In this document: piece by piece, positions 23,635 to 49,065 of the stretch
Position numbering within the stretch: position 1 is the stretch's first letter
Layout: every line of letters starts with the position of its first letter
Made by a program: the position numbers and the translations under genes
Source: an uncultured Verrucomicrobiae bacterium
GTDB lineage: Bacteria > Verrucomicrobiota > Verrucomicrobiia > Palsa-1439
Reading direction: 5' to 3'
Assembly: GCA_963817685.1 (NCBI GenBank)
Contig: CAWFPN010000010.1
Location: forward strand, 450,852 to 514,851
DNA length: 64,000 bases
Notes under the pieces: model-generated
Seen by the model: the letters and a program-made list of their open reading frames with translations, nothing else
Database searches by the model: none
What the model was told of the DNA's origin: nothing

Positions 23635-26600
23635 CTAACGCATGCTCACCGTATGGGATTGGTGAGTTTGGCGACGCACCGCTCTCGCCGCCTTCTCCGC
23701 AACCGCTTCCTCGCCATCAGGAATAGCAGCAGCGTCGAGCTTGTTAGATGCCTGATTCCGGGTCAGGTCCAGTGCTTTCACGATCTCGTCCTGGCGCTGG
23801 GCTAGGCTTTTCAGTTTGGCTTCGTGCTCGAATGGCTCGCCTACCTTCGCTTCCAATTCCGCTATTCGCTTCCTGGACTCCGCAACGTCCTTCTCGGTCT
23901 GAACCAACTTCTGGTCGAGGGACTGCATGGTGTGCTCCAGCGAACGTGTCGTGCCGTGGGCATTGTCTGAGATGCTCGCCGAGTAGAGATTCGCACCCTT
24001 GAGGACAAGTTCGGTGTGTTCCAACGCGCTGGCTCGGAGGACCACGGCAAACCCGGCAAGCTCACCAACGGTGTACTCTTTCCCTGAACTCCGGAGTTGC
24101 TGGGCGCGGCGATTGATCAGCTCCCCGGCGATTCCTCGATCTGTGTAGTCGGTTCCCTCGATGCGGATCTTAAAGGCGTTGCCCTGCGTCGGCTGTCTGC
24201 AACCGATGTCCTTGTGGAGGTTCTCGATGCGTCTGGTGAGGATTTCAACCTCCTCCGTCGTTCGTCGGATTGTGTCCCGAATCCGGTACTGGGTCTCGTG
24301 GTGCTGGGCTCGCAATCGGCTGAGGCGGCCCAACTCGGCGTCGGTGTGGGCCTTCTCGATGACCAGTGGGTTCCCTGATGCGATGGCTTTGACCTCGGCG
24401 TAGGTGAGCGCGGTGCCGTCGACGTCCTCGATATGACGCAGGTCATTGCGGCCGGTCATTACCTGGTGAATGAATTTGGCCTTCGTTTCGAGCGTCTGCC
24501 ACATGTAGGCGTCGAAGCTGCCTTCTGTCACGTACCGGTAAATCTGCACCTCGGCGTTGCGATTGCCCTGCCGGAGAATTCGTCCCTCACGCTGCTCCAC
24601 GTCCGCCGGACGCCAGGGCGCATCGAGGTGGTGTAATGCAACCAGCCGCTCCTGCACATTTGTGCCGGACCCCATCTTCTGCGTGCTGCCCATCAAGATG
24701 CGGACTTTACCGGCGCGAACATCCTTGAAAAGCGCGAGCTTGGCTGCGTCGCTTTCAGAATCTTGAATAAAGGCGACTTCGGCAGCGGGAATGCCGGCGA
24801 TGACGAGCTTGGCTTTCACGTCGTCATACACCGAGAACCCAACGTCCTTCGGCGTGGACAAATCGCAGAAAACAAGCTGCGTCAGCCGATCAGCCTTCGT
24901 CTCCTGCCAGATGCGGAAGATTTCATGAACCGCGAGGTTTGCCTTGCTCTCGGGATGGTCGCGCGCGCTCGTGTCGACCAATCGAAGGTCCAGTGCGGCC
25001 TTCCGGCCTTCGGTGGTGATCTTGAGCATGTTGTCCACGCGTGGATCAACGCGCCCCTTGCGCAACTTTTCCGCTCTGTCGGCCAGACCGGAAACGAGCG
25101 CCTTCAGTTCTGGCGTTGCTGGCGCACGGATGATCGCGGCTTTCCCGCTCCGCAGCGCGGGCGTGGGCAGCTTCAACGTTTCCGCCGTGCGTATATCGGC
25201 AACCTGTCGGAACTGTTGCATCAGCTCAGGGACGTTCACGAACCGCGCGAACCGCGTGTTCAGCCGGTAGCCCGCTCCGTCCGGGGCCAGTTCCATCGCC
25301 GTTACCGGCTCGCCAAACGTTGCCGCCCATGAATCGAAGTGGTGCACCCGCAGCTTCGTCAGCGCGGTCATTTGCAGGTAACGCTGCATGGTGAACATCT
25401 CCGCCATGCTGTTGGAGATCGGCGTGCCGGTCGCGAATACCACCCCTCCCCCGCCGTTTACCTGCTGGATGTACCGGGTCTTGAGGAACAAATCGAATGC
25501 GCGCTCCGAGGCTGTCTGTGGCAGGCCCGCGATGCGGGTCATCTTGCTGACGTAAAAGAGATTCTTGAAGTACTGGGCTTCATCAATGAACAACCGATCC
25601 ACGCCCAGTTCCTCGAATGTCAGAGTGTTGTCCTTCTTCCCCTCGGCCAAAAGGAGCTTCAGCCGTGTCTCCAGTCGCTTTTTCGCGCGCTCCAGGTCTT
25701 TGACTATCCGCCGATCGTCCTTGCCAGCGCGCTGTTCGCGGATGGCCATTTCCAAGTCGTGGAGCTGCTCGCGGAAGAACGCCTTCTTGGTTTCATCCGA
25801 TAAGGGGATTCTCTCGAAGCCCGAATGCGTGACGATGACCGCGTCCCAGTTCCCCGTGGCGATGCGACTCATCAACTGCCGACGCTTGCTCGCTTCGAAG
25901 TCCTCCTTGCCGGCCACTAGAATGTTTGCGCCAGGATAAAGCATGAGCAGTTCGGACGAGAACTGGCCGAGCATGTGGTTTGGAACGACGAACAAGGGCT
26001 TCCGGGCCAACCCCAGCCGCTTCAGCTCCATCCCTGCCGCAACCATCGTGTACGTCTTGCCGGCGCCCACCACGTGGCCCAAGAGCGTGTTGGGAGTTTG
26101 CAGGATTCGCCAGACACCCGCTTTCTGGTGTGGGTGCAGGACCACGACCTGGCTCGCGCCCGGCAACGTCAGATGATCACCGCTGAACGTCCGCAATCGA
26201 ACATTGTTGAATTCCTCGTTGTATTTCCTCACCAGCCGCTCACGGCGCCCGTCGTCCTGCCAAATCCATTCCTTGAACCGGTCCTTGATCTTCTGCTGCT
26301 TCTCACGCGCGCCTTCGGTCGCTTCAGGATTCGCAACGAGTTTGTCCGACTTGAGGTCTTTGTCGTAAATGGTCGGCGTGCGGAGATTCAGCGCGTCCTG
26401 AATCAGGTCGAGCGCCCCGGCGCGGTCCGTCCCCCATTCGGTTGTGTTGGCAACAGTGCGTCTGGCGAAGTAGTCGCCACTGACAACCCAGGTGCCGATG
26501 GCGTGCGAATGGCTGACTTCGATGCCCGTCGCACTGATAAATTCCTGGCAGAACCGCTCGATGTCCTCTGCCGGGACCCACGACGCGCCCAAGCGCACGT

Positions 26601-28448
26601 CAATCTCGGCGGCCGACAAGTCCTCCGGCTGGACGGCCTTGAGCGCGTCGACGTTCTCCTTGAAGCGTGGGTCGGTGATGCTCGCGGCCTCAGCAATCTC
26701 CAGCTTCTCGCGGACGTTGCCGGACAGGTATCGGTCGTCGGTCTCCCACTCGTTCGATTGCGGATTGAGGAAAATCGCCCCTCTCAGTTCCGGCAGGAAT
26801 TCGTCTTCGGAGCGGCCGAGCAAGGCGCTCATGTAATCGAGGTCAACGCGGCCCTTTTCGTTCAGCGAAACGATCAAGGCTTCCTTTGGCAGTTCAACCG
26901 ACTCGATAGGTTTCTGATACTGAATCGTTCGCTCGCGAAAGATCGCCGTTTTCTTGGCTCGTTTGGTCTCCTCGTCGTAGACCTCCAGTGACAGGAGCAA
27001 CGGCAGGTCGGGATCACCATTGAATACGCGTGTGTTCGCACGGCTTGAAATCGGACCGAATCGTGAGATGAACGAGTCGTATGTCTGATTGAGTCTCTCT
27101 CTCGCCGCGACAATGGCGGCCTCGTCGCTGCCATCGAGTTGACTGCGGAGACATTCACGCACGGCGTCACGAACCCGAATCAGCCGTCGGATTCGCACCT
27201 TGGTTTCCGCCGGCAACCCCGGCAGCGTCTTCAACGAATCCCCCACCCGGACGGCAACATCGTCATGAACCATCACGAAGGCGTTGGGCTTGACGTGGTC
27301 GGGGGCAGGAAACGTCTGGTCGAGGGACGGCGGAGTCACAGCCCGCTTCTGCGCTCGGTAAATATTTTGCGGCAGGTTGCTGAGTGCTTCCGTCAACGCC
27401 TCAGCTAAATCCCGGCCATCGCTGACCAGGGTGGGTTCGTTGTCGCGGTACATGCTGCCCGACAACTCCATCTTGCCGAGCATCATGCGCGGGTGCTGCA
27501 CGAAGTATTCGTTGATGTAGATCGTTTCGCCCTTGGCGTTGCCATGCTCCGCCGTCTCCTTCCACGCCGGACCCGACGGGGTTTCGCCGGGATTCAGTTT
27601 GCGCAACATCACGATGTCGGTGGTGACCTCGGTGTTCGCGTTGCGCTTGAACGCGTTGTTGGGCAGTCGCATTGCGCCAACGAGGTTGGCCCGTTGCGCC
27701 AAGTATTCGCGCAATGCCGAGTCCTCTTTGTCGAGGGTCCCTTTCGAAGTGATGAACAGAATCAGCCCGCCCGGCCGCACCTTCTCCACGGTGGCAGCGA
27801 AGAAGTAATCGTGGATTGAAAACTTGAAGACGTTGAAACGCGGGTCGAACGGCTGGTAGTCCCCAAACGGGATGTTGGAGACCGCCGCGTCGTAGAACCC
27901 GTCGGCCAGCCGAGTCTCTTCGAACGGCTGGTGGCGAATGTCGGCATCTGGATAAAGCGCCTTCGCGATGCGGGCGGTCAGTTGGTCAATCTCAATGCCG
28001 GTGATAGTCGAGTGGGCGTGCATTTCCTCCGGCATCAGCCCGATGAAATGGCCCAGCCCGCAGGCAGGCTCCAAGATGCGCCCATGGTTGAAGCCGAAAC
28101 GCGCGAGGGCGTCGTACATCCCGCGAACGATGACAGGCGCTGTATAGTGGGCGTTGAGTGTCGAGGCGCGGGCAGACGTGTGTTCCTCGTCCGTCAGAAG
28201 TTTGGACAGTTCGACCTGCTCCCTGGACCACTCGCGCGAGTTGACATCGAAGACCTGTGGCAGCCCTCCCCAGCCGACGTACCGCACGAGAACCGCTTTT
28301 TCGTCGTCAGAGGCAGGACGTTTTTCGGCTTCGAGGCGTCGGAGAAGTGTGATCGCCTCGACGTTGGCGCGGAACTTCTGCTTGAGCGACCCCTCCCCCA
28401 GGCGGTCGCGGTCGGTAATGCGGTAGTTGGCTTGGTTACGCGGCGTAC
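23635..28448 (-). CDS. N6-adenine DNA methyltransferase fused to SNF2-family helicase (5' end unresolved)
   Basis: Methylase motifs LEPACGLGHFIG (SAM motif I) and VSNIPFGD (motif IV). Helicase motifs GHVVGAGKTYT (I), LFIDEAQYFKNL (II), GTPISNS (III) and HHLDAPWRPADVEQREGRILRQGN (VI). The listed ORF runs to 28773, but its first ~108 codons overlap a better-coding 88-aa frame. Confidence 0.85.
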
Positions 28449-28715
28449 CTAATTGTTCTCGGCCGGCAGCAAGATGTACCTCTCCCTCACCATTTCCCAA
28501 GCCTGATCCTGGGCCTGCTGCGGCGTGAACCCCTGCTCGGTCAGTTGCCGGCGAATCGCGTCCATTTCGTCCTTGGTCTTCTCCTCGGCCTCCAGAAGCA
28601 TCTGCTGCAGCGTGCTCGTCCGCTCCATTTCCGCCACCATCCGCGACCGATGCACGCGCCAGTGTTGTTCCGCCATCAAGCCGTATTGAGTCAGTGTGCT
28701 CATGTGAGTCTCCAT
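28449..28715 (-). CDS. Small helical protein (88 aa), possibly the displaced N-terminus of the methylase-helicase
   Basis: The translation is protein-like (..YGLMAEQHWRVHRSRMVAEMERTSTLQQMLLEAEEKTKDEMDAIRRQLTEQGFTPQQAQDQAWEMVRERYILLP..). The third-codon position is strongly G/C-biased in this frame. The overlapping frame gives Gly/Arg/Asp-rich low-complexity text. Confidence 0.6.
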   Translation of the reverse strand: METHMSTLTQYGLMAEQHWRVHRSRMVAEMERTSTLQQMLLEAEEKTKDEMDAIRRQLTEQGFTPQQAQDQAWEMVRERYILLPAENN

Positions 28716-28854
28716 TGCCCGAAAACAAATCGAGTTGATCTTGTTGCCGTCCCTTTGACCGTTTGAGAGTCATTGGTTAAATCGCGTGCCACATTTCCCC
28801 TCATCTGAGGGCATTTTGCTACGGGGGGATTTAGCCATGATTCGCTGGTGGAAC

Positions 28855-28872
28855 TGTTCCCAATTGGGAACA
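28855..28872. promoter_or_regulatory. ICE operator palindrome, site 1 (TGTTCCCAATTGGGAACA)
   Basis: Perfect 18-bp palindrome in the non-coding region upstream of the minus-strand 88-aa/methylase/xis/int block. Confidence 0.6.
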
Positions 28873-28957
28873 AAATCACTGATGCGTTCTTGGCGTGCAG
28901 TTGCTCCAGCGTGAAGTCTTAGAGACCAAAGCCGTTGGCGAAATGTTGAGAACGCAA

Positions 28958-29021
28958 AAATGTGGAGTTGGGCGGAAATTGGCACGATTTACGGCTTTTT
29001 CTGCCAACCAACTCCACATTT
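28958..29021. repeat. 14-bp perfect inverted repeat AAATGTGGAGTTGG ... CCAACTCCACATTT with 36-nt spacer
   Basis: Arms at 28958-28971 and 29008-29021. It shares the ATGTGGAG core with the palindrome at 29331. Confidence 0.6.
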
Positions 29022-29330
29022 ACGAAGAGGATCTGTGGGCTGTACTTTCGACCACTGGAGGCAACAGAGGCGTCGCCGAGAATGCGACGCTCCCTGATCA
29101 ACGGGCACTTGAATCCAACGGAAGGCCCTTCCCACAACGGCAAAACAGTTCGCAGCAACGGCGAGCCAAGCATTCCCTGAGAACCAGGGCCAACGCGATG
29201 GGTTGCGTGGAATCCCGCCGGAAGGCTTGCTAGGCGTTGCATAAATGTTGAGTCCGCTCGCGTGTTTGCCGCGTGACTACAGGGTCTTTCGCATCAGCTT
29301 CACATTTTTGAAAACTTAACATTTCGCCAA

Positions 29331-29350
29331 TTATGTGGAGCTCCACATAA
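29331..29350. repeat. 20-bp perfect palindrome TTATGTGGAGCTCCACATAA
   Basis: Read directly from the sequence; lies in a 1.1-kb non-coding stretch. Confidence 0.6.
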
Positions 29351-29505
29351 TAGGCGGAGCGAGCACGGTCAAGAAGCGCAAGCGGTGGACCGCAGCCCCG
29401 CGAGGAATATCTTGACGGCGCACAGCGAGCCGTAGAATCGAGGGGCGATTCACGCAAGCCGACTGAAAACACAGCGCGAATGCGCAACGGAACTGAGATT
29501 GCGAA

Positions 29506-29650
29506 AAGCGATGTGGCCGCGAGAAACGACGGCTCGCAGCGGTGACATCGGAGCGCAATCAGATCGCCAACGGCACAGCGAAAGTCTTTGGGGTTTTGCA
29601 GCGGAGCAGCGCGAAGCGGGCAGAGCGAAAAACCACAATATCTTTAGCGG
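29506..29650 (+). repeat. Structured ~145-bp repeat, copy A
   Basis: aagCGATGTGGCCG-[inner hairpin gcgag/ctcgc]-CGGTGACATCG...GAAAGTCTTTGGGGTTTTGCAGCGG...gcgaagcgg.... Aligns with copies B and C. Confidence 0.65.
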
Positions 29651-29730
29651 CCCGCACGGGTAGTGTCGATTGACGTGCTAGACGGTCCGAGATGTCGAGC
29701 GGGATGGCGCCGAGCCTGTAGCGTGTCGGG

Positions 29731-29875
29731 AAGCGATGTGGCCGTGCGTGATGTGCACGCGACGACATCGCCAGCGAATCAGATAGCCTCTGCCAGAGCA
29801 AAGTCTTGGCGCTTTGCAGGCGGCGGCGAGGGGAGCAGGGACGCCGAAGCGGCAAAGGCCAAGTCTTTGAACGGC
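29731..29875 (+). repeat. Structured ~145-bp repeat, copy B
   Basis: aagCGATGTGGCCG-[inner hairpin cgtgc/gcacg]-CGACGACATCG...CAAAGTCTTGGCGCTTTGCAGGCGG...gccgaagcgg...CCAAGTCTTTGA. Confidence 0.65.
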
Positions 29876-29916
29876 TCTCCGATTAAGAAAATAGTAGTGA
29901 GCGGCTATTTTTCCTG

Positions 29917-30252
29917 TCATGCGATCCGATTGATAAGGTTGTCGTAGAGCGAGCCATGCGGGTCAATAATGATGAGGGCACCGTATTTGTTTTCGTGCCA
30001 TTTTTTGATGTCCTGACAGATGAGGGTCTCCAGTATTTTCGATTTCCCGGTGCTGGCGGCACCGCAGATGTAGAGATGCGTCAAACGCATTTTGCCCTTG
30101 CGGATCACCTGCATGCCTTTCTGGCCGGCGGTGATGCCGTTGCGGTAGCTTTCCAAGACTTTCTCGGAAACCCAGCGCTCGATGGACGCGGTGTCCGCAC
30201 CGCTGTCGAGCTTCTCTGCGAACTCGACTTCGAACTGTTCAATGTATGACAT
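29917..30252 (-). pseudogene. Truncated P-loop NTPase (HerA/DUF87-like N-terminal fragment)
   Basis: 111 aa with Walker A ..CGAASTGKSK.. and ..ALIIIDPHGSLYDNL... The ORF stops just before the repeat array, far short of a full ATPase domain. Confidence 0.5.
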
Positions 30253-30488
30253 GTTCGTTTGTAGTTGGCTGATAAGGCGACCTTGTGCGTGCGGTTGTGA
30301 GCCGTCCGCACTCTTGACGCACCGTCCGCAGTCAAGGTGAATGCCTTGACCGGGACGGTATAATGAAAAGAGAGCGCGGCGAACGCCTTGCGAGGGGAGC
30401 GGATACTCCCGATTTTAAGTGTAACTAAGGTTGAATCGACCAACCCGGTTTTAACCTTGCAGAGATTGAACTATTCTGCTTTCTTCAC

Positions 30489-30839
30489 TTGATGGCAGAT
30501 CGCACAGTGCGAGATGTAATTGACCAAGCGATTCAAGAGAATCGCTTCGGGGAGCGGCTGCTATACGTTTTCGCATGTGGCATGTTCGGCGTTGGTATCG
30601 CGCTTATCATCCACGGGATGATTGTTGGTTCGACTACTCAAACAGTTGTTGGTGCTATAGGCACTTCAACCTTCATCCCAGCTGTGCATGTGGCGCAAAA
30701 GCTTAGACAGCAAAACATGTCCGTTCGACTACTTGAGGCTGCGTTGATGAGAGCAGACACTGCAAAAGACGCTGCTCAAGCCATTCGCGCTGCATTTACT
30801 GAACTTTTTACAAAAAACGGCGGCGCAGGCAAGAAATGA
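30489..30839 (+). CDS. Small membrane protein (2 predicted TM helices), unknown function
   Basis: 116 aa with hydrophobic segments LLYVFACGMFGVGIALIIHGMIV and TVVGAIGTSTFIPAV. Its stop overlaps the permease ATG (ATGA). Confidence 0.5.
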   Translation: MMADRTVRDVIDQAIQENRFGERLLYVFACGMFGVGIALIIHGMIVGSTTQTVVGAIGTSTFIPAVHVAQKLRQQNMSVRLLEAALMRADTAKDAAQAIRAAFTELFTKNGGAGKK

Positions 30840-32932
30840 TTTTCCGAAGACGCACGTTTAAGTCTGTTGCCAAGGACCTAGTTTCTGGTCTTGAAAACGG
30901 CACTATATCCCTGACCCGATCAACAACTGCTCCAGTCAAGCAGCCTGACGCGATGTCAGCAACCTTAGCGCCCAGACAGCCACCCACGGCAACGTTGGGG
31001 GCGACGGGGCTGGCATCAAATGCGATGGCGCTGATCGCGCCGGGCACGTTCTTGTGGTTGACCTTTCAAATCCAATCGCTGTATGGCACACCCATGGCAG
31101 GCTGTGCGATGTGGTTCGGCTTGTTGTGCGCGCTATTGCTGTGCTTCGCGACGGCGATCAGTTACTCCGAGCTATCCAAGCTGTTCCCGGTAGCCGGGTC
31201 TTCGTACCTCTACGCCGAGCAGGCGTTCCTGTCCAAGACGCACGCGTATAAGTTCGCCCGGCTCGTCAAGTTCACCACAGGGTGGGCTACCCCTCTGTAC
31301 TACTGGGTCTACCCCGGCTTGATGGTGGGCGTGACGGCGATTTTAGCTGGTTATCTGGCCAGCCAGTTCTGGCCGAACACATTCAGCGGGACATACAATA
31401 GTCCGCTGTTTATGTATCTTTTCTGCGCCGTGTTCGCATTGCTGTTAGGCTACATCGCCTACCGAGGCGTCTATGGTAGCACCGCCATTAATCTAGCGAT
31501 CAACACCATCCAGATCACGGCGTTGATCGTGTTCGCGGTGATGGCCATTGGATATCGCCTACATCACCCGCAAGGCTCGGTCGGCTATCACTTGTCGGGC
31601 GGAACGCCGGTCGATTATCAGGTTGATCAAGTCAATCAGACTGACGACAAGGGTAAACCGGTGCAAGCCACCTGGGCTGACAATTCACCGAAGACCGACG
31701 ACAACGGCCAGCCGGTCTACAAGAGGAAAGATCGTACCGTTACCAAAGACGACCTGGCCAACAAAGACATTCCGCTTCCCGCCGGGCTGAGAGAGGGCGA
31801 CCCATATCCACTGTTGCAGAAGGACGACAATGGCAAGTTGGTTTTGGACAAGGATGGCAAGGGGATTCCAGTGCCGTTCACATTGAGTTGCAAGCCCGAG
31901 GACGCAGTCACCGGGAATCCGGGCGACGCCCGGGACCCTGAAACCTTCAACTTCCATAGCAGCACCGACTCGGTGGTCGCCCCGCACGGATTCAACTTCG
32001 TCTTCATTCAGGCGTGCGTCGCCATTCTGCTGCTGGTCGGGTTCGAGTCGGTCACCGCGATGGGTGAGGAGGCCAAGAACCCCAAGGAGGACATCGGACG
32101 GGCCGTCTTGTTGTCCTTGGCGATCCAGGGCGCGTGCTGTTACCTGTTCGAGTATTTCGCGGCGAACTACTTCCTGAATAGCGGCTTTACCATGTCCAAT
32201 GCGGGCGCTTCCGGTGCGCCCATCGGCAACATGTTGGTCATCGTCGGCACGTGGCTGTTTGGCAGCTATTCGGCAGGTCGGGCATTCATGCTCGTACAGG
32301 CGTTCACGGTGTTCCTAGGGCTGATTGGCATGACGTTGTCCTGCCTCAGCACTAGTGCGCGCGTGACGTACACGATGGGCCGGGATGAAGAAGTGCCGTC
32401 GCACTTCGGCCTGTTGCACGGCAAGACGTTGTCGCCCTACCGCACCATCTGGACGCTGTCGATCCTTTCAATCTTCATCGGGATCGTGACGGTGAGCGTT
32501 TATTTGGGCGGGCAACGTTCGGATATGCCGCCCTTGGAAGTGCACAACTTCTGGTACGGCTTCGGCATTTTTTCGCCGCATGCTTACACTTGGTTGCCGA
32601 ATACGCTCGTCATTGTAACGCTGATCACCAGCTTCGGGATATTTATGCGCTACATGATGACCTGCTGGATCGCCATGGTGGCGTTCAAGGAACATCATAT
32701 CTTCAGCGGGGTGAAGCACGTGCTGGTCCCGTTGTTCGGCCTGCTGGCGAACCTCTGCTGCATGCTGTTCTACCTGATCGGGCCGTTCACGGTCGATGGC
32801 ATGAGTTGGCATGAACCTTACATTGTGCTGGCTGTGGCCCTGGCTGTGGCCGCCCTTTTGGGAGTTTCTTACTATCGTCGTCAAAACGCTCAAGAAAGCC
32901 AAGTGTTACTCGCGAGACAACGGGCTAGCTGA
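30836..32932 (+). CDS. APC-superfamily amino-acid/polyamine permease with large hydrophilic insertion
   Basis: Has ..ISYSELSKLFPVAGSSYLYAEQAF.. and about 12 hydrophobic helices. A ~140-aa hydrophilic loop (aa ~243-385) interrupts the helices. The true start may be an internal Met (MSATLAP.. or MALIAPG..). Confidence 0.8.
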   Translation: MIFRRRTFKSVAKDLVSGLENGTISLTRSTTAPVKQPDAMSATLAPRQPPTATLGATGLASNAMALIAPGTFLWLTFQIQSLYGTPMAGCAMWFGLLCALLLCFATAISYSELSKLFPVAGSSYLYAEQAFLSKTHAYKFARLVKFTTGWATPLYYWVYPGLMVGVTAILAGYLASQFWPNTFSGTYNSPLFMYLFCAVFALLLGYIAYRGVYGSTAINLAINTIQITALIVFAVMAIGYRLHHPQGSVGYHLSGGTPVDYQVDQVNQTDDKGKPVQATWADNSPKTDDNGQPVYKRKDRTVTKDDLANKDIPLPAGLREGDPYPLLQKDDNGKLVLDKDGKGIPVPFTLSCKPEDAVTGNPGDARDPETFNFHSSTDSVVAPHGFNFVFIQACVAILLLVGFESVTAMGEEAKNPKEDIGRAVLLSLAIQGACCYLFEYFAANYFLNSGFTMSNAGASGAPIGNMLVIVGTWLFGSYSAGRAFMLVQAFTVFLGLIGMTLSCLSTSARVTYTMGRDEEVPSHFGLLHGKTLSPYRTIWTLSILSIFIGIVTVSVYLGGQRSDMPPLEVHNFWYGFGIFSPHAYTWLPNTLVIVTLITSFGIFMRYMMTCWIAMVAFKEHHIFSGVKHVLVPLFGLLANLCCMLFYLIGPFTVDGMSWHEPYIVLAVALAVAALLGVSYYRRQNAQESQVLLARQRAS

Positions 32933-33044
32933 GGATCGGGAGGCGTGTTCCTGCATGGGACAGTTGTTCGGGTGTCAAATTGAATCCGTTGGCCTTGACG
33001 AATATCTTGAGGGACATATACTACTGCCAGCTTAACGAGCCATT

Positions 33045-33251
33045 ATGAGCAAACATTATCCAAAAGGTCTTGATGGCCGCGAGCGCGACAGAGATGGCCA
33101 GATTCGCGAAAAGCGGGGCGACACTCGTGTCGCCACATTGCGCAAGGAATACGGCGACAATTTCGCGAAGGGCTATCGTTCAGACACCAAACTCGAAACC
33201 GTGCGAGATGAGACGGGAAAGAGTTTGAGCGAGCTCGTCAAAAAGAAATAG
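33045..33251 (+). CDS. Small basic/acidic hypothetical protein (68 aa)
   Basis: ORF with coding-like codon usage (MSKHYPKGLDGRERDRDGQIREKRGDTRVATLRKEYGDNFAKGY...). No recognisable family and a weak RBS. Confidence 0.35.
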   Translation: MSKHYPKGLDGRERDRDGQIREKRGDTRVATLRKEYGDNFAKGYRSDTKLETVRDETGKSLSELVKKK

Positions 33252-33462
33252 GGCTGGCGTCTTCGCTTGGGAAGCCTCCCCCCCTGCACAAAGCGATCCA
33301 TGAAGAGTTTTGCGTTGGGGAGTTTGGGACCCTTTCCTTGCCACCAGAATCGCGGCTTGGGGCGAAATCGGTTGCGAGATTGTCCGTGCGGCCTCGAACG
33401 GCCGTCCGGTAGAGCGGACGCCGAAGAAATATTGTTTCTGAGTCGCTGTTGACCAACATGGA

Positions 33463-33610
33463 GAGTGATGTGGCCGAGAGAAGCCATGGCTCGGAGCGGC
33501 GACATCGTTGCGTGGTACGGTCGCCAAAGGCAAAGCCAAAGTCTCTGGGTTTTGACGCGAGGCACCGCACGGAGCGGTTCGAAGCAAAAAACCTCAGAGT
33601 CTTTGGCTGC
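33463..33610 (+). repeat. Structured ~145-bp repeat, copy C
   Basis: gagTGATGTGGCCG-[inner hairpin ccgag/ctcgg]-CGGCGACATCG...CCAAAGTCTCTGGGTTTTGACGCG...ggagcgg...CAGAGTCTTTGG. Same orientation as copies A and B. Confidence 0.65.
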
Positions 33611-33634
33611 CCAACCGACTGGTTTTGGTGGCGG

Positions 33635-34045
33635 TCAGACCCGTGCGCCTGCGACTGACTGCGTTTGGCGCGGCGTGATGCTGCGCATCGTCCGGCTGGC
33701 GATGGAGACCATTACCTTTTCGCGTTGATCTTCCGGCAGGTGCTTCACTAGGGTTTCGTACGCCTGCTTGAGTTCGGGGTTCTGCTCCAGCTTGCGCAGA
33801 ATGCCGTCCTTCATCTTTTGTTGCCGGTCGAGCTTGTTCACCTCGCTCAGAACGAGCGCGCGCTCCAGTCGCTCGCGTGGCATGGACTGGATGTAGCCCC
33901 AGTGCTTGGGGTTGTTCTTGATGTACTCGTCGATTCGGGCGTTGACCTTCGGGTTGTCCCGGTATTGGCCGGGCTGTTCAGTGGACTCATCTTGAGTCTT
34001 GGCTTTGCCTTTGAGCATTTGCTCTCTCCTCTGGGGATTATTCAT
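33635..34045 (-). CDS. Hypothetical ICE protein (136 aa), last gene of the T4SS block
   Basis: Charged helical protein (..NPKVNARIDEYIKNNPKHWGYIQSMPRERLERALVLSEVNKLDRQQKMKDGILRKLEQNPELKQAYE..). No family recognised. Confidence 0.5.
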   Translation of the reverse strand: MNNPQRREQMLKGKAKTQDESTEQPGQYRDNPKVNARIDEYIKNNPKHWGYIQSMPRERLERALVLSEVNKLDRQQKMKDGILRKLEQNPELKQAYETLVKHLPEDQREKVMVSIASRTMRSITPRQTQSVAGARV

Positions 34046-34057
34046 GTGGGTGAATGT

Positions 34058-34652
34058 TCACCAGTTTGGGTTTGAGGTTTCAGGTGTCCCGCTGGATGCG
34101 GGACTTTCCTTTTGCTGGTTGCGGATTTCCGTTTCCAACAAATCGAGACGCTGTTTGGTCAGGTCCAACTCCGTTTTGAGTTGGCGATTCTGCTCGGCAA
34201 CCTGCTTGCTCGCGTCCAAAGCAGTCGAAATCTGCGTAAGCGTATCGTTCAGCCGCCTCCCCTGCTCGATGACGGTCTGCGTGGCTGCCTTTTGCCGGTT
34301 GACCTCCGCGATGACTTCCGGCGTGGTCGGTCCGTCTTTGTAGGCCGGATCGATGATCTGCACTGCCGGCCCCAACGCGACGGTGGCCGGCGCGTTGGGG
34401 CGCAAGTTCCACTTGGCTGTGGTTTCCACACGGTAAACGACGTGGCGTTCGTGCATGACGAACGGCATTGTTCGGGTCAACGTACCGGCCGACGTTGTAC
34501 GCCTTGATGTTTTCGGAGTACCGCACCGACTCGATGTCGTCGCTGGGCAGAGTCGTTCCGGGAACTGGGCGCGACATGTTGAGCAGGCTCAGGTTGCGGT
34601 TCGATGCGCAAGCGGAGAGGAATAGCAGAGGGATCAGGTAGATGGTTTTCAT
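34058..34652 (-). pseudogene. T4SS-associated lipoprotein with coiled-coil C-terminus, apparently frameshifted
   Basis: Lipobox MKTIYLIPLLFLSAC...GRYVDPNN is in one frame (34080..34652 ORF). The sequence continues as MPFVMHERHVVYRVETTAKWNL... in the other (34058..34480 ORF). The junction is near 34465-34485. Confidence 0.55.
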
Positions 34653-35689
34653 GGCTCGTTGCGATGTGAAAGGCGGGGTACGATGGTTGGTGTTGACTGG
34701 TCGGTTTCGGTCGCCAGGAGTCGTGTGCCGCCGACGACTGCGTCGGACTTGTCGATGGTCTGTGTGACGTATAGGTAGAATTCTTTCCCGGCCGGCACGC
34801 GCACGTAGAATCCGTCGCGTTGGATGCTATCGAGGATTTGTTGCGCATAGGTGCCTAGGACATCCTGTGCCCCTTGCAACGGCGCATTTTGGAGTGTAGG
34901 CAACAGTTCTGTACCAACGACCGTCTGCCTCGTTTGAGTCATTGCGGAAGCAGCCCCGCTCAGGAGGGTGGCCGCGAAAAGTTTGATCTCGGCCAAGTTG
35001 TCGGTCTTTAATAGCTGCCCCCGCAAGCCGGCGCTGCCATCAGTGATGCCCCACCCTTCGCCGTCAGGGTCTTTCTCGCGGTCGAGAGCGATGCCCTGCA
35101 AATGGAGTTCCTCGCCAGTTTGCCACACCAAAGTCCAGCCGCCGTTACTGGCGATGCGTTCGCGTTTCCGATCGGCCTGGGCTGTCCCATGGACTTCAGT
35201 CCCGGCAGGGATAATGAGCCGGCCATCGTGGTAAACGTCGTCGGTGACCAACGCGATAATCGGCGTTTGGATCGAAGATGAGTCAACGGTCACGATGAGT
35301 TCGCATGAAATCAGCCGTCCGTAGGGCGCGTAGAATTTGCTCAGCGGCTTGTGCTCGGGCTCGGACGAGGGTGGTTCGGTGTAGAGACTGATGGGCGTGA
35401 AGCCCTCGTTGATTTGCTGCGCCTGCGCGCCGGTTGTTTGCGCAATCATGCCGGCGGCAGTGGTGCGAGGGGGCTTGAAGGGGACGATCTCCCGCTGGAT
35501 CGTCTGAAGAATCTGGGATGTTCTGTTGGTGTTATCAGCTAGCGTTGGCAAGGCAACCGTCTTTGGCTTGCCCTTGTTGGGGTCGTAGAACCCTTTGACG
35601 AATACAAGCGCGAAGATCAGCAGAACCACGAATGAGAGGACCACGCCGGTCGGGCTGCGCAAGAATGTGATGGCGTTGCGCGGGTTCAT
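34649..35689 (-). CDS. VirB10/TrbI-like T4SS protein
   Basis: N-terminal TM helix (VVLSFVVLLIFALVFV) and a Pro-rich linker. The C-terminal beta-barrel region reads ..LIIPAGTEVHGTAQ...GGWTLVWQ...GWGITDGSAGLRGQL... Confidence 0.6.
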   Translation of the reverse strand: MNPRNAITFLRSPTGVVLSFVVLLIFALVFVKGFYDPNKGKPKTVALPTLADNTNRTSQILQTIQREIVPFKPPRTTAAGMIAQTTGAQAQQINEGFTPISLYTEPPSSEPEHKPLSKFYAPYGRLISCELIVTVDSSSIQTPIIALVTDDVYHDGRLIIPAGTEVHGTAQADRKRERIASNGGWTLVWQTGEELHLQGIALDREKDPDGEGWGITDGSAGLRGQLLKTDNLAEIKLFAATLLSGAASAMTQTRQTVVGTELLPTLQNAPLQGAQDVLGTYAQQILDSIQRDGFYVRVPAGKEFYLYVTQTIDKSDAVVGGTRLLATETDQSTPTIVPRLSHRNEP

Positions 35690-36591
35690 TCTGACGATTT
35701 CCGTTCTGGCTGCACCAGTTGTAGCGGTGGTGCGTTCGTCTCGATGCGGTCGAGAAGCACAATGAAGTCGTTCTTCAGAGACAGGTCGTTGCGTCCGCCG
35801 TTAGGTGTTCCGGTTATGGCAAAGTAGGCGGGCGCTTCGCCGTTTGGCGGGATCGTGCCGCTAGCGTCGCTGATGGACTGCGGATAGGTGCGTTCACCGA
35901 CGCGGAGCGAAAAGCCGTCTGGCCCGTACTGAATGGGCTGGTTGGTCTTGTTGCGTAGCAGAATCCGAAAGATGAGCGTATCCTCGGGGTCGAACCGGAA
36001 AACCTCGTCGAGTTGAATCTCGTAATCCCTGAAGTCCAGGACTCGCGGGGTCTTGCTGAAGTTGATGTAGTCGACCTGGGCAACCGCGTCCGCGTGGTAC
36101 TCCTTGAGAAGCGGGTAGGCTTTCGCCTTGTCCAAGAGCGCTAGCAGCCGGTCCGGCGTGATGCGGTTTGAGCTGGGGTGGAAGTCGGCCTCGGTATCGG
36201 CGTCGGTGTCGTACTCAAAGATCACGGAGTAGAGCGGTGAGGGACTCTCAACCAATTCGATCGCGTAGGTTTTCTCGTTCCACCGAATGTTCATGTTGGT
36301 CGTGGCCCTTTCGACCAGCGCCCTCACGGACAGGAAGTATGAGCCTTTCGCGTGGGCGATTTGAAACAGTCCGGGGACTTTGGGGTCGCTGGTGACGTTA
36401 GCCGCATCAATTGCCGAGATTGGACCGGGGAAGCTGATGGTTGTCACGCGGCTGCGGGATACCGGGATTGCGTACACTGTGTGTTCGTCCAAGCGATATT
36501 CCGCAATGGGGCTGGCGTCCTTTGCGAAGCTTGACTGAAGGCAAACCAGAAGCATCGACGCGATGTGGATATGTTTAAGGAGACGTTTCAT
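35686..36591 (-). CDS. VirB9/TrbG(CagX)-like T4SS protein
   Basis: Signal peptide, then ..HTVYAIPVSRSRVTTISFPGPISAIDAANV...YFLSVRALVERATTNMNIRWNEKTYAIELVES... Position is between the VirB8-like and VirB10-like genes, with 4-nt overlaps. Confidence 0.55.
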   Translation of the reverse strand: MKRLLKHIHIASMLLVCLQSSFAKDASPIAEYRLDEHTVYAIPVSRSRVTTISFPGPISAIDAANVTSDPKVPGLFQIAHAKGSYFLSVRALVERATTNMNIRWNEKTYAIELVESPSPLYSVIFEYDTDADTEADFHPSSNRITPDRLLALLDKAKAYPLLKEYHADAVAQVDYINFSKTPRVLDFRDYEIQLDEVFRFDPEDTLIFRILLRNKTNQPIQYGPDGFSLRVGERTYPQSISDASGTIPPNGEAPAYFAITGTPNGGRNDLSLKNDFIVLLDRIETNAPPLQLVQPERKSSE

Positions 36592-37315
36592 ATTTGAAAT
36601 CGAACACAGCGGTCGGGAATCGTCCGTTCTGGACCATGTTGGGGTTGCGCTGGAACTTGAAGGCGAGCGTGAACGGGACAGCTTCGGCGAAGGCTCTGTC
36701 CTCGAAAATCCCGGTGCGAACGAGTTGCCCGGTCACCTGGGTCAGGACGAAGTTCTCGCGGGTCTGGAGGATCGTGATCTTGGCAATCTCGGCTTTCTGA
36801 TGCAATTGCTTCGCGGCAAACTCCGCTTCTTCCGAAGCGCGTTCAGCCTTGGCTTTGACCAGAGCATTCTTCAAGAACATCTGCTTCAGCAGGTCATCAT
36901 GGTCAAAGCCTTTGGGGTTGCGCTCCAGGAAGGCGACGGTGGCCAGTGTGCTTTGCTCCGCGTGGAGGTCTTTGGCTTCCTCGAATTTCAGGAGCGGCGC
37001 GACATGGTATGTGCCGGATGGATCAAGGATGACCACGCGCTCGCGTTGTTTGAACGTCTGCACCAGAATGAAACGGTCAACTGCCGCTGCTACAAGAATC
37101 AGTCCGGCAACGATGAACCAGAACCACGCGAGCCGGTCGCGATCGACGAAGATGCGGGTCGGATCGAACTTCTTGCGGGAGAGATTGGGGCGCTCGGTTT
37201 TCGGCACTGGAGTTTCTCGGAGTGTTGTCTCGGTTGCGTTCATGTTCGATGGGTTGTGGGGGTTCTTGGTCTTGCGCAGCAAGGCTTGCACGGCGTTGTC
37301 GCCGCTCACGTCCAT
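36575..37315 (-). CDS. VirB8-like T4SS protein (bitopic, NTF2-like C-domain)
   Basis: Single TM helix LAWFWFIVAGLILVAAAV followed by a ~170-aa periplasmic domain. The start is uncertain: ATG 37315, ATG 37243 or GTG 37366. The call rests on gene order and topology. Confidence 0.45.
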   Translation of the reverse strand: MDVSGDNAVQALLRKTKNPHNPSNMNATETTLRETPVPKTERPNLSRKKFDPTRIFVDRDRLAWFWFIVAGLILVAAAVDRFILVQTFKQRERVVILDPSGTYHVAPLLKFEEAKDLHAEQSTLATVAFLERNPKGFDHDDLLKQMFLKNALVKAKAERASEEAEFAAKQLHQKAEIAKITILQTRENFVLTQVTGQLVRTGIFEDRAFAEAVPFTLAFKFQRNPNMVQNGRFPTAVFDFKYETSP

Positions 37316-37359
37316 CGTGGATGGCGTTGGGTGCAGTCGCGCCGTCACTTTCTCGCTTC

Positions 37360-38382
37360 CTAGCACTCGTGTCCGCGTTGTGCATCTGTCCCAAGGCGGT
37401 GATCATCGAGCCCGTCGGCGAGTACGTGCTGCCGCTGAATGACGAACCAACCAGCGTGGCCCCGGCTGCCGTGAGACCGCCGGCGGTGGCCATCGCCGCA
37501 CCGGCCAGACCGCCACCCGTTCCGAACGTGCCGGCCGCAATGAATCCGCCGGCGATGGCGGTGGTCGCGGCGGTTGTCACGCCGCTGATAAGAGCTGCGC
37601 CGGCCTGAATGCCGTGAGTGATGACGCGTTGAATGACGACGGGCGCGGCGATGGTGCTGAAGATCAACCACACGCCGAGCGCCGCGACCCCGATGAAATT
37701 CTGGAAAGCATACCCGGCCGCCCCGCCGAGGGACTGATTCCAAAGAAAACTCTGGTCGGTCATGAAAGTGATCAACCCTCCGGTGACCAGCGATGCCGCG
37801 CCCCACCCCAGCGGCCAGAGCATGACGCCCAACGAGCGAGAGCAGATAGTTCGTGCCGATTTGGTTCAGGGCGCGGATCGCGAGAAACCCAATGAAGATC
37901 GGCGAGAGCGCGTAGCCCAGGTAGAGGATGAACTTCTGGATCAAGTACGCATAAAAAACGATCACACTGGCCAGCAAGCCGAAGATCCAGAGCAGACCCG
38001 AAATAAGCGCCTCGAAGATGGACGTGCCGGCGTTGAACAGTTTCTGCCACCAACTATTTTGAGATGTGGTGGATTTCTGAACCTGCAACGCCTGGTTGTA
38101 TTGCTGGTACACGTTGCTGGGATCGGCCTGAAGAACATTCGTCACTGTGTCGTTTGTGATCTGGGCAATTTGATTGCCCCAATTGACCAACTGCGTAAGC
38201 ACGATGATGTAAACGATGGTGCGGCCCAGTGCTCGCAGGACGGCCTCGGCGCTGTGGGGACCGGCTATCGTGGACGACACCATGCCGGTGACGAGAAACA
38301 GATACGCCACCGGCATCAGCGCCGACTGCAAGGCAGTGCAGCTCGCAGCAAAATTCGGAAAGAGGGTGTCGAAGTTGTTCAT
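37360..38382 (-). pseudogene. VirB6/TrbL-like polytopic membrane protein, apparently frameshifted
   Basis: Frame A gives MNNFDTLFP...IGTNYLLSLVG, then junk. Frame B (ORF 37077..37832) continues VMLWPLGWGAASLVTGGLITF... with more TM helices and a Gly/Ala/Thr-rich tail. The junction is at a GGG run near 37826-37832. The 3' end is also unresolved. Confidence 0.6.
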
Positions 38383-38385
38383 GGG

Positions 38386-38556
38386 CTATCGCTGAGAGAA
38401 CTGCGGCGACAGTGTGTCGAGATTCAGCGTCTTGTTGGGTTGCGTGGCCGGCGATGTGGATCGCCGTTGATTTGCCTGCCGCGCGGTGAGCACGGCGACA
38501 ACCACCGTGAGAATCACGAAAGCGGCAACGCAGACGATGATCAGTTTCTTAATCAT
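38386..38556 (-). CDS. Small single-TM protein (56 aa)
   Basis: An internal ATG at 38556 overlaps the stop of the upstream gene. TM helix: MIKKLIIVCVAAFVILTVVVAVL. Confidence 0.4.
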   Translation of the reverse strand: MIKKLIIVCVAAFVILTVVVAVLTARQANQRRSTSPATQPNKTLNLDTLSPQFSQR

Positions 38557-39361
38557 TGGAGTTGTCCGGGAACGCCGCCGGCTGCGTACTGAGTGTGAGC
38601 GTGTCATTGTACTTCTGGATTCCTTCCGAAAACTCGGCCTGTTGCTCCTCAACCTGCGCCTGCTGCTGCTTGGCCTGATCGTTCTGGTTCTCCGCGTCCT
38701 GGACGATGCTTAGGCTGGCTGCATGGTCGAGTTCCTTGTCGGTGGCAGAGAGTTCAGCGTTCAGTCCAATCAAGATGCCCGTGAGCTTTTGCACCTCCGA
38801 TGCGGTGGTGGCTGCCCGGAGTTGTTCGGTGGTGTTGGCAATGTCTTGCCGAAGCGAGTCGCGGCGGGAGACCACGTCGGCATATACGCTGGTGAAGTTC
38901 TTGGTCGCTTCGTTGATGGCGGCGAATTGACGGTAGAGGGTGGGGTCCCGCGACACCGAATTGCCGTCGGGCGTGGTAAACGTCACCCCCACATCGTGAT
39001 AGAGGCCATTCGCGTCGTATTGCATGGCATCAATCCCCTGGGACAGGTTTTCCAACTGTCCCATCGCCTGACCGACACCGGTATCTTGGAGGTCGGAAAT
39101 CAGGCTCGTGAAGCCAGCCAGGTTGAGGATTTGGGACGGATTACCAAAGACCTGGTTGTACTGTTGAAGCTGCTGCAACTGCGAGGTCATCGTGCTGATC
39201 TGCTGAACCTGGTTGTCGATCATCTGCACGTACTTGGCAATGTTCTCGGCTTCATCAAGAATGCCTTGCGTGTGCAAGGCGGGGTCGTAGACGATGTACT
39301 GGGCGCGGCCTGATGCGGCGCAGAGCAAGCTGACGGCGATAACGGTGAACATTCGTTTCAT
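38549..39361 (-). CDS. VirB5-like secreted helical protein
   Basis: Signal peptide MKRMFTVIAVSLLCAASGRAQ followed by a long helical, Gln-rich protein. Position is between the VirB4-side lipoprotein and the VirB6-like gene. Confidence 0.4.
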   Translation of the reverse strand: MKRMFTVIAVSLLCAASGRAQYIVYDPALHTQGILDEAENIAKYVQMIDNQVQQISTMTSQLQQLQQYNQVFGNPSQILNLAGFTSLISDLQDTGVGQAMGQLENLSQGIDAMQYDANGLYHDVGVTFTTPDGNSVSRDPTLYRQFAAINEATKNFTSVYADVVSRRDSLRQDIANTTEQLRAATTASEVQKLTGILIGLNAELSATDKELDHAASLSIVQDAENQNDQAKQQQAQVEEQQAEFSEGIQKYNDTLTLSTQPAAFPDNSND

Positions 39362-39364
39362 GGC

Positions 39365-39778
39365 TTATTCCTCGATTCGTAGGAGTTTGGTTGTTGGGTT
39401 TAGGATTACCCCGTCGATTGTCTGTTCGGGGACCGGGATCTCGTAATAGCGGACATTGTCTTGGTTCTGTCCGGCTTTCTCCTTTTGTTGGTTGACCTGT
39501 ATCCAGTACTGCTGTTTGGCTGCGTCACTGCGCCCTTTCTCGTAGCCGTTGTTGTAGGCGTTGTCGGCCTGCTTTTGGCTGGCGTAGTGCAGCCCTTCGC
39601 TGACAAGGACACCCCCTGCGGCGCCGGCGGCTGTGAGGGCGGGATTGCCGTGCGAGAATTCGCTGGCGAGTGCCGCACCGCCGGCGCCCATGGCGAGGTC
39701 GCTAATCGGTCGCGTCGCGGCGCACCCGGTCAGCAGGGGTGGGATGATTACGATAGCGATGAGATGGAAGAATTTCAT
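39365..39778 (-). CDS. VirB7-like small lipoprotein with glycine-zipper segment
   Basis: The ATG at 39778 overlaps the VirB4 stop (ATGA). Lipobox MKFFHLIAIVIIPPLLTGC, then ..AMGAGGAALA...AAGAAGGVLV... The rest of the listed 369-aa ORF overlaps virB4 and is rejected. Confidence 0.55.
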   Translation of the reverse strand: MKFFHLIAIVIIPPLLTGCAATRPISDLAMGAGGAALASEFSHGNPALTAAGAAGGVLVSEGLHYASQKQADNAYNNGYEKGRSDAAKQQYWIQVNQQKEKAGQNQDNVRYYEIPVPEQTIDGVILNPTTKLLRIEE

Positions 39779-43173: not shown

Positions 43174-43195
43174 GTTGTTCCCAGTTGGGAACAAC
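43174..43195. promoter_or_regulatory. ICE operator palindrome, site 2 (GTTGTTCCC-AGTT-GGGAACAAC)
   Basis: 9-bp perfect arms, 33-54 bp upstream of the pilin ATG. It sits between the divergent T4SS and Clp-like genes. Confidence 0.6.
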
Positions 43196-49015: not shown

Positions 49016-49033
49016 TGTTCCCGTTTGGGAACA
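49016..49033. promoter_or_regulatory. ICE operator palindrome, site 3 (TGTTCCC-GTTT-GGGAACA)
   Basis: Lies in the 140-bp gap between the divergent relaxase and accessory/ParA/T4CP genes, 33-50 bp upstream of the likely relaxase ATG (49066). Confidence 0.6.
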
Positions 49034-49065
49034 CAATTTCCCGCGAAGTGAGGTATCCGTCGTCC

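Follow-up and report, generated by a model that had tools for sequence, protein, structure and literature searches.

Integrative and conjugative elements (ICEs) of the SXT/R391 type accumulate diverse cargo, notably anti-phage defence genes, at defined intergenic positions of their backbone. Structured repeats have been described from comparable surroundings. The closest analogue to the array reported here is STAXI (RF01728), a structured unit that usually occurs in three tandem copies near anti-restriction, integrase and Ssb genes (Weinberg et al. 2010, PMC2864571). The Frpo/ssi sequences likewise comprise several homologous hairpins in the same orientation near anti-defence and establishment genes (Masai & Arai 1997; Samuel et al. 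2024, PMC11541004), and anti-restriction genes are of a class typical of plasmid leading regions (PMC11541004). Here we analyse a 64-kb stretch of an uncultured Verrucomicrobiae bacterium (contig CAWFPN010000010.1, positions 450,852 to 514,851; hereafter the window), in which three structured units, named A, B and C, lie within an ICE. We are highly confident that they belong to a new family of structured elements that forms a backbone array of ICEs in Verrucomicrobiia and that is split by inserted cargo in the window.

As in STAXI, a tandem structured triplet stands beside a methyltransferase (MTase)/helicase gene and an integrase gene, which is a resemblance of arrangement only, without homology, and the question of RNA versus folded single-stranded DNA (ssDNA) applies to both. 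STAXI units, however, are short pseudoknots found in Enterobacteriales, whereas the units described here measure 175–230 nt, form two to three hairpins, fall into three ordered types and occur in Verrucomicrobiia ICEs. The site shares with the hotspots of SXT/R391-type ICEs that diverse cargo is found at a defined intergenic backbone position; unlike those hotspots, it coincides with a structured-repeat array, and extra repeat copies often accompany the cargo. We classify the array as tandem structured motifs in the establishment region of a conjugative element that also mark a hotspot of defence cargo. No Rfam 15 family, including STAXI (RF01728), Acido-Lenti-1, HEARO and the known ribozymes, matched anywhere in the window at the gathering threshold. 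With permissive filters (E ≤ 10), the sole match between 28700 and 34200 was a chance miRNA outside the units. In the plasmid collection, no match was found for the whole region (megablast) or for unit C (blastn).

An earlier note on this DNA had described three copies in the same orientation, and all three were recovered on the plus strand, with ~75% column identity among them (78% over 90 nt, ungapped, for A and C). The starts given in that note agree with ours, but its ends were too short. According to the covariance model (CM), unit A spans 29506–29677 (110.9 bits), unit B 29731–29886 (144.9 bits) and unit C 33463–33638 (113.1 bits). Each unit consists of a first hairpin (HP1; 29509–29550 in A, 29734–29770 in B, 33466–33507 in C), a linker of ~30 nt, a long irregular hairpin (HP2; ~29581–29646, ~29800–29869 and ~33535–33609, respectively), a small HP3 and a GGCGGTCAG tail, the last two having been delimited from relatives. 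In the window, HP3 and tail follow HP2 in unit C, whose tail overlaps the stop codon of the adjacent gene orf136, while the HP3 loop of unit B is cut at ~29886 by the cargo junction, which was placed against uninterrupted B units. As the earlier note had observed, an outer stem encloses inner stems that differ in every copy yet always pair. The outer stem of HP1, CGATGTGGCCG...CGGYGACATCG, pairs as CGATGT(G)GCCG/CGGY(G)ACATCG with a G-G mismatch, and the inner stems are CGAG/CTCG, GTGC/GCAC and CCGAG/CTCGG. The boxes AAAGTCT and AGTCTTTG represent the two sides of the HP2 base (AAAG-T-CT / AG-T-CTTT), which contains a conserved T-T mismatch.

With filters off, the full-length CM matches in the window were these three, all on the plus strand. 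Other matches were weak and consisted either of minus-strand hits to part of these hairpins or of scores at chance level (≤7.9 bits, E ≥ 0.35). An exact GATGTGGCCG at 63659, considered as a fourth copy, falls within a coding sequence, shows no other similarity and is a chance match. Unit C seemed conserved as far as 33712, but this reflects the 3′ end of orf136 and not the element. Unit C folds better than shuffled sequences (z = -4.2), whereas unit A alone does not (z = 0.5). The 3′ HP2 box of unit A is degenerate, with two G>A changes (AATATCTTTAG versus AATGTCTTTGG in the family). Taken together, the weak fold and the two changes suggest that unit A may be decaying.

Base pairing of the units is supported by covariation, and the compensatory variation and conservation of structure over sequence proposed from three copies hold with 100–150. 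Two alignments were analysed, one built with MAFFT from 100 copies of ≤91% identity and one based on the CM with 150 copies. In the MAFFT alignment, 89.9% of the cells in HP1, HP2 and HP3 were paired, 199 cells had changed on both sides compared with 69±6 in shuffled alignments, and the covariation score was 0.181 versus 0.087. The corresponding values for the CM alignment were 90.7%, 287 versus 110±8 and 0.178 versus 0.087; none of 500 shuffles reached the observed value on any of five measures, and controls with slid pairing partners scored 0.018–0.058. Individual positions illustrate this exchange of pairs, such as 95-157 (GC 56, CG 38, UA 33), 98-154 (GC 38, AU 26, CG 25) and 11-40 (GC 107, AU 15), and in some copies entire inner stems were swapped, for instance to CCCCGAC...GTCGGGG. 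We also considered that the units might be coding, as frequent open reading frames (ORFs) of 150–200 aa run through them. Only a minority of copies had a unit-spanning ORF, and these ORFs used all three frames; therefore, the units are not coding. Both inside single types and from one type to another, indels of 1, 2, 4 and 5 nt were seen, none a multiple of three. With no Rfam match and no conserved frame, the copies are not fragments of a known insertion sequence (IS) or coding gene, an origin that the earlier note had left open.

Further copies were retrieved from two collections. A gapped pattern of 24 bases was searched in a species-representative genome collection of 596 Gb, where we estimate a chance expectation of ~0.4 (our own figure, not the result of a tool). 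It yielded 23 loci, 22 of them from 14 Verrucomicrobiia metagenome-assembled genomes (MAGs) from soil, palsa, bog and spruce peat. A locus from Micromonospora had no match to the profile and was discarded as chance. A pattern of like kind added 101 stretches from a metagenome collection. Profile search over all retrieved DNA then gave 249 copies in 121 loci; wherever the genome behind a true copy is named, it is a MAG of the Verrucomicrobiia. Not one of the 121 loci had copies on both strands, and start-to-start distances peaked at 215–235 nt and at 175–190 nt. By sequence, four types could be distinguished (A, D, B and C), and they follow each other in the order (A or D)-B-C.

The surroundings of the array are conserved as well. 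In the window, it occupies the interval between the 5′ end of a gene for a 1712-aa MTase with an SNF2 helicase (23635..28773, minus strand, divergent from the array) and the 3′ end of orf136 (33635..34045, minus strand), the last gene of a type IV secretion system (T4SS) operon. In 21 loci, the MTase/helicase gene precedes the array on the other strand, with a median gap of 388 nt. Downstream, orf136 is followed by VirB10- and VirB9-like genes, all convergent with the array, and unit C lies a median of 14 nt from orf136 (12 loci). orf136 received no family assignment in Pfam/NCBIfam-type searches; its relatives share 87–96% amino-acid identity and always stand beside unit C. A second family of elements has its units close to a TrwC-like relaxase gene, at a median distance of ~2.6 kb. 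Four loci (L084, L123, L057 and L028) carry the array uninterrupted, with the MTase gene pointing away on the left, then promoter, leader and units D-B-C, and orf136 pointing towards them from the right.

This uninterrupted state bears on the suggestion that the repeats bracket the cargo of the ICE and had delivered it. A cargo of 3.6 kb (29887..33462) lies between units B and C in the window. It contains a TraD/type IV coupling protein (T4CP)-like fragment (29917–30252, minus strand), which is the truncated P-loop gene noted earlier beside A and B, followed on the plus strand by orf116 (30489–30839), the gene for a 698-aa amino-acid-permease-like protein (30836–32932) and orf68 (33045–33251), and it also holds a terminator-like hairpin. 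The region between B and C is A/T-richer, as had been stated, although modestly (GC 0.549 vs 0.586–0.597 in the flanking ICE genes). Because relatives carry the uninterrupted triplet, the comparison of loci indicates that the cargo is an insertion into a pre-existing array. The repeats thus did not arrive with the cargo, and delivery of the cargo by them is not supported. The bracketing itself stands and recurs, as cargo was found between units in 30 independent inserts, many of which are defence systems.

These 30 inserts range from 0.4 to 11 kb and encode 93 ORFs in 79 protein clusters, a highly diverse content; the cargo is multi-gene and occurs in both orientations. Defence-related contents include AbiEi/AbiEii (three members), Septu PtuA (2.9e-166), a class II prokaryotic Argonaute (pAgo; 2.6e-278) with a Cas4-like nuclease, DruE-like helicases (3.5e-178), MADS components, type I MTases, AbiL and OLD/Gabija/PARIS-like ATPases. 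The array is thus a hotspot at which this ICE family has repeatedly gained cargo, including defence genes. The proteins of the window cargo had no tblastn match in the 23 loci from the genome collection and correspond to no defence system recognised by Pfam, NCBIfam or PADLOC.

Two further arrangements were seen among the loci. In two different element families (L009:1868–2305 and L019:5303–5743), the first unit and unit B are separated by a stand-alone gene for a response-regulator receiver, which represents a recurrent small 'cassette'. Contig PLZV01000030.1 (loci L008 and L004, 8 kb apart) carries ICE units over at least 14 kb and has a partial B unit, consisting of the HP2 3′ arm and HP3, directly upstream of unit C. 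Therefore, the gain of cargo can duplicate parts of units.

Upstream of unit A lies a sigma-70-like promoter (29412..29438, plus strand), composed of TTGACG at 29412–29417, a 15-nt spacer and TAGAAT at 29433–29438. It is followed by a conserved leader (29445..29505) with the box TTCACGCAAGCCGACT at 29449–29464 and the mini-hairpin GCGCGAATGCGC at 29474–29485. In seven ICEs, this forms a near-invariant block of cTTGACg, 15 nt, TACAAT, ~10 variable nt, TTCACGCAAGCCGACT and the GCGCGAATGCGC mini-hairpin. Across 33 distinct leaders, the -10 hexamer varies as TAnAAT only, with the third base free as in sigma-70 -10 elements, the spacing is the same in 28, and the sequence just downstream of the -10 hexamer is variable. 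Promoter motif and leader together precede 38 first units, never a B or C unit, and 2 of 35 units that follow cargo.

The region is also transcribed in situ. The earlier note had proposed looking for this in RNA-seq data, and k-mers of the array were found in ~35 metatranscriptome runs from many studies of soil, wetland, peat and permafrost. RNA contigs, which are unstranded, cover the units and span B, C and orf136. Depth over the array exceeded that of both neighbours in two runs (X28 and X7), and the whole ICE was transcribed in another (X26). High RNA depth at L023:1600–1920 belongs to a fragment of an IS transposase (motif YGYIHGIRSSRRLE) and not to the array; this fragment sits between the MTase gene and a 5′-truncated first unit. 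With respect to the strand, pairing statistics weakly favour plus. Minimum free energies favoured the plus strand in 43 of 47 copies, as did the consensus folds of all types, and G-U exceeded A-C combinations by 121:65 in well-aligned helices.

The only features that tell RNA from DNA are the promoter and its leader, and transcription of the region was observed; a family of non-coding RNAs, one of the options named in the earlier note, therefore ranks first. We assign a probability of roughly 0.5 to the reading that the array specifies a promoter-driven plus-strand non-coding RNA of several units. Rightward transcription would start from the sigma-70-like promoter, pass the leader (29412–29505) and generate a single multi-hairpin RNA, in which the three paralogous units would serve as separate modules. 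These modules would keep recognition features of a protein-like kind, namely the G-G mismatch in the basal stem of HP1 and the AAAG-U-CU/AG-U-CUUU base of HP2 with its U-U mismatch, while their apical parts would differ by unit type. The data show family membership, structure with covariation, the place in the backbone, the uninterrupted state, the hotspot and transcription of the region, whereas we infer plus as the functional strand, RNA instead of ssDNA as the active form, and any role in regulation or anti-defence.

Several observations weigh against such an RNA. The 15-nt promoter spacer is short, and the site was not called by a consensus scan. The RNA contigs cover the -35 and -10 elements and upstream sequence without a start at the predicted transcription start site, and since they extend across the promoter, start sites are unreadable from them. 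The RNA data consist of unstranded Logan contigs, and three adapter remnants give mixed, uncalibrated orientations. The bias of G-U over A-C is just ~1.9-fold, the consensus folding energies are near equal (-88.9 for plus vs -86.0 for minus), and z-scores of single copies do not separate the strands. Moreover, B and C remain intact despite up to 11 kb of cargo, often in opposite orientation, between them and the only promoter, which would be easier to understand if they acted as DNA or were transcribed from elsewhere. Finally, the element is confined to conjugative elements, where folded ssDNA sites are expected.

The last two points make folded ssDNA the main rival, as it would explain both the persistence of units far from the promoter and the restriction to conjugative elements; we regard it as possible, though we do not favour it. 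The units would then act during conjugative transfer or rolling-circle replication of the ICE, either as ssi/sso-like signals for priming or complementary-strand initiation or as hairpins of the transferred strand that the relaxase or some other protein of the ICE would recognise, with several copies distributed over the element. This is consistent with their single orientation beside an anti-restriction-type MTase gene and with the second element family, in which they lie close to a relaxase gene. Extra units accompany cargo, for example in the arrangements D[*]D[*]D-B-C and A-B[*]A-B, where [*] stands for cargo. The mismatches in the conserved stems are themselves conserved (G-G in HP1, T-T in HP2), and the strand bias of the pairing is weak. 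Some apical loops of type A contain GCGAAGC, which forms a very stable DNA mini-hairpin. The same ambiguity between RNA and ssDNA was raised for STAXI (PMC2864571). Yet a conserved duplex-type promoter with its leader points into the array, and the array is transcribed in situ. The window holds no unit-like sequence near the relaxase gene. Furthermore, the units fall outside the definition of Frpo (PMC11541004). Unlike in Frpo/ssi, no -35, -10 or UP elements lie in the stems, and an ordinary duplex-type promoter stands upstream of the first unit only. The HP1 and HP2 arms of all four types lack a conserved TTGACA/TATAAT-like pair, and the HP2 arms, at ~30 nt, are too short for both elements by the published criteria (PMC11541004). 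A relaxase nic-like site in the linker (GTCT...ATAGCC, as in R388) was rejected, since this motif lacks conservation in types A, C and D and falls within a predicted helix.

A functional minus-strand RNA appears doubtful. Read-through from the T4SS operon towards the MTase and integrase genes would in this case be stabilised or terminated by the units as intercistronic or 3′-untranslated hairpins, a role like that of the REP/BIME elements. The units do resemble REP/BIME as GC-rich intergenic hairpins between convergent or co-oriented operons with a possible role in mRNA stability; they differ from these dispersed palindromes of 20–40 nt in being much longer, ordered paralogues that are restricted to ICEs and not dispersed. 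Both flanking operons are on the minus strand, RNA contigs are continuous from orf136 into C and B and cover the putative promoter region, and fold z-scores on the minus strand are equal to or better than on plus. Two of the three adapter remnants would indicate minus-strand RNA if the libraries were dUTP-stranded. The leader hairpin, read on the minus strand as GCGCATTCGCGC and followed by a T-rich run, is weakly terminator-like, but its stem has 4–5 bp only and its T-run is imperfect and poor in L007 and L009. The counts of G-U and A-C combinations and the folding energies favour plus, and this reading would offer no explanation for the -10-like conservation pattern on that strand. Three ordered paralogous types with conserved sequence outside the stems also exceed what simple stabilising hairpins need.

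The earlier note further considered that the repeats could be recombination sites which had brought in the cargo. As attC-like sites, or as oriT-like sites for the relaxase, they would capture cassettes and turn the ICE into an integron-like platform, which we think unlikely. The parallels with integron arrays are folded repeats in the same orientation with structure conserved above sequence and with conserved mismatched bases, variable cargo including defence genes between them and a promoter at the head. All 30 inserts lie between units and never inside HP1-HP2 of the downstream unit, and all 32 units that follow cargo are complete from HP1. By eye, the right junction seemed fixed at the base of HP1, an impression overturned by an anchored-extension test with shuffled controls. 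Among 26 right junctions, ~15 had no recognisable spacer and 9–11 had a spacer of 19–42 nt. Right junctions thus fall 0–45 nt upstream of HP1; left junctions are variable, with some cutting HP3 and three truncating the next unit just past HP1. Variable junctions on both sides imply that there is no fixed crossover point, and the idea of recombination sites is not supported in this form. In contrast to attC sites, the units are two to three times longer and lack R/L core sites (no RYYYAAC/GTTRRRY was found around HP1 in the three window units). Unlike in integrons, the uninterrupted array consists of three cargo-less units of fixed type and order, the cargo is multi-gene and in both orientations, and IntI is absent. 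The tyrosine integrase, the only tyrosine recombinase, lies ~5 kb from the array and reaches no NCBIfam family cut-off; its best match, the XerA/'site-specific tyrosine recombinase/integron integrase' model, scored 46.5 bits against a cut-off of 220. A capture platform of a new kind, unrelated to IntI/attC yet integron-like, is no more probable. Here, the relaxase or tyrosine recombinase would insert or exchange multi-gene defence cassettes at folded-ssDNA units during transfer, with a cassette consisting of a unit and the DNA that follows. The simplest reading of the junctions is a permissive spacer flanked by homology, with selection for intact units.

That the units are dispersed genomic repeats (REP/BIME, miniature inverted-repeat transposable elements (MITEs) or PATE) which merely chance to lie in an ICE, of which the earlier note had suggested the REP/MITE type, is very improbable: they are repeated, intergenic and contain hairpins, but the window has its three copies in one intergenic block, copies in the 121 loci are clustered at one backbone place, co-oriented and ordered, their neighbours are always ICE genes, and the units, 175–230 nt long and of three distinct paralogous types, are direct repeats without the terminal inverted repeats of MITEs.

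The preferred non-coding RNA and the folded transferred-strand DNA make this element a concrete test case for telling the two apart. As a new structured family with strong covariation, no Rfam counterpart and expression in situ, it comes from a phylum that is abundant in soil and peat but poorly studied, and within a conjugative element it occupies the region of establishment and anti-defence. Together with STAXI of enterobacterial plasmids, this suggests that conjugative elements recurrently carry tandem structured repeats next to anti-restriction genes. The hotspot is a place where Verrucomicrobiia ICEs carry argonaute, Septu, Druantia-like, AbiE, MADS and restriction-modification systems, and the conserved units can be used as anchors to mine metagenomes for new cargo, including candidate defence systems.

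The ICE itself, recognised as such in the earlier note, spans ~22.1 to at least 51.7 kb of the window. It carries the tyrosine integrase gene (22096–23310, minus strand), which is separated from the array by the 5.1-kb MTase/helicase gene. On the other side of the array, the T4SS operon with VirB10-, VirB9-, VirB6- and VirB4-like genes (34080–42504, minus strand) is followed by genes for the T4CP (45973–47463, minus strand) and a TrwC relaxase (49048–51696, plus strand), and a ParA-like gene is also present. Candidate hairpins occur upstream of the relaxase gene. No Y1 (HUH) transposase, the type associated with REP/BIME (RAYT) and with IS200/IS605 PATE, was found among the larger window ORFs and some neighbouring ORFs, a scan that did not extend to whole genomes. 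No tRNA gene was detected anywhere in the window, so the attachment site of the ICE is not a tRNA within this stretch. The 22,000 nt left of the integrase look chromosomal and encode a 2801-aa PKD/GH15 protein, a LuxR-type response regulator, a LacI regulator and a 1665-aa RHS-repeat protein with a C39 peptidase domain.

Additional observations concern single sites of the ICE. A MITE-like insertion of 422 bp (28935–29356) with 36-nt terminal inverted repeats (TTGGCGAAATGTTGAG...) separates the MTase promoter region from the array promoter. It is absent from six related ICEs, and related ends were seen in metagenome loci L056 and L119. Within 34058–34652, two minus-strand ORFs of 190 aa and 140 aa overlap. 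Relatives match residues 1–68 of the former, which carry a lipoprotein-like signal, and the entire latter, a pattern that suggests two short genes or a frameshift instead of a single 190-aa protein. Between the VirB4 and coupling protein genes, the segment 43321–45936 encodes a ClpB C-terminal-like AAA fragment (PADLOC PDC-M37B/DolB-like matches) and a DUF4062, HATPase_c_4 and HTH protein with weak pAgo-associated matches; this segment may represent a second site for cargo or defence genes in the ICE. Finally, the palindrome GTTCCCnnnnGGGAAC occurs upstream of the MTase/helicase gene (28856–28871), in the intergenic region at 43.2 kb (43177–43192) and upstream of the TrwC relaxase gene (49017–49032). 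The three sites are probably a shared operator for an ICE repressor, and the copy next to the MTase gene is conserved in relatives.

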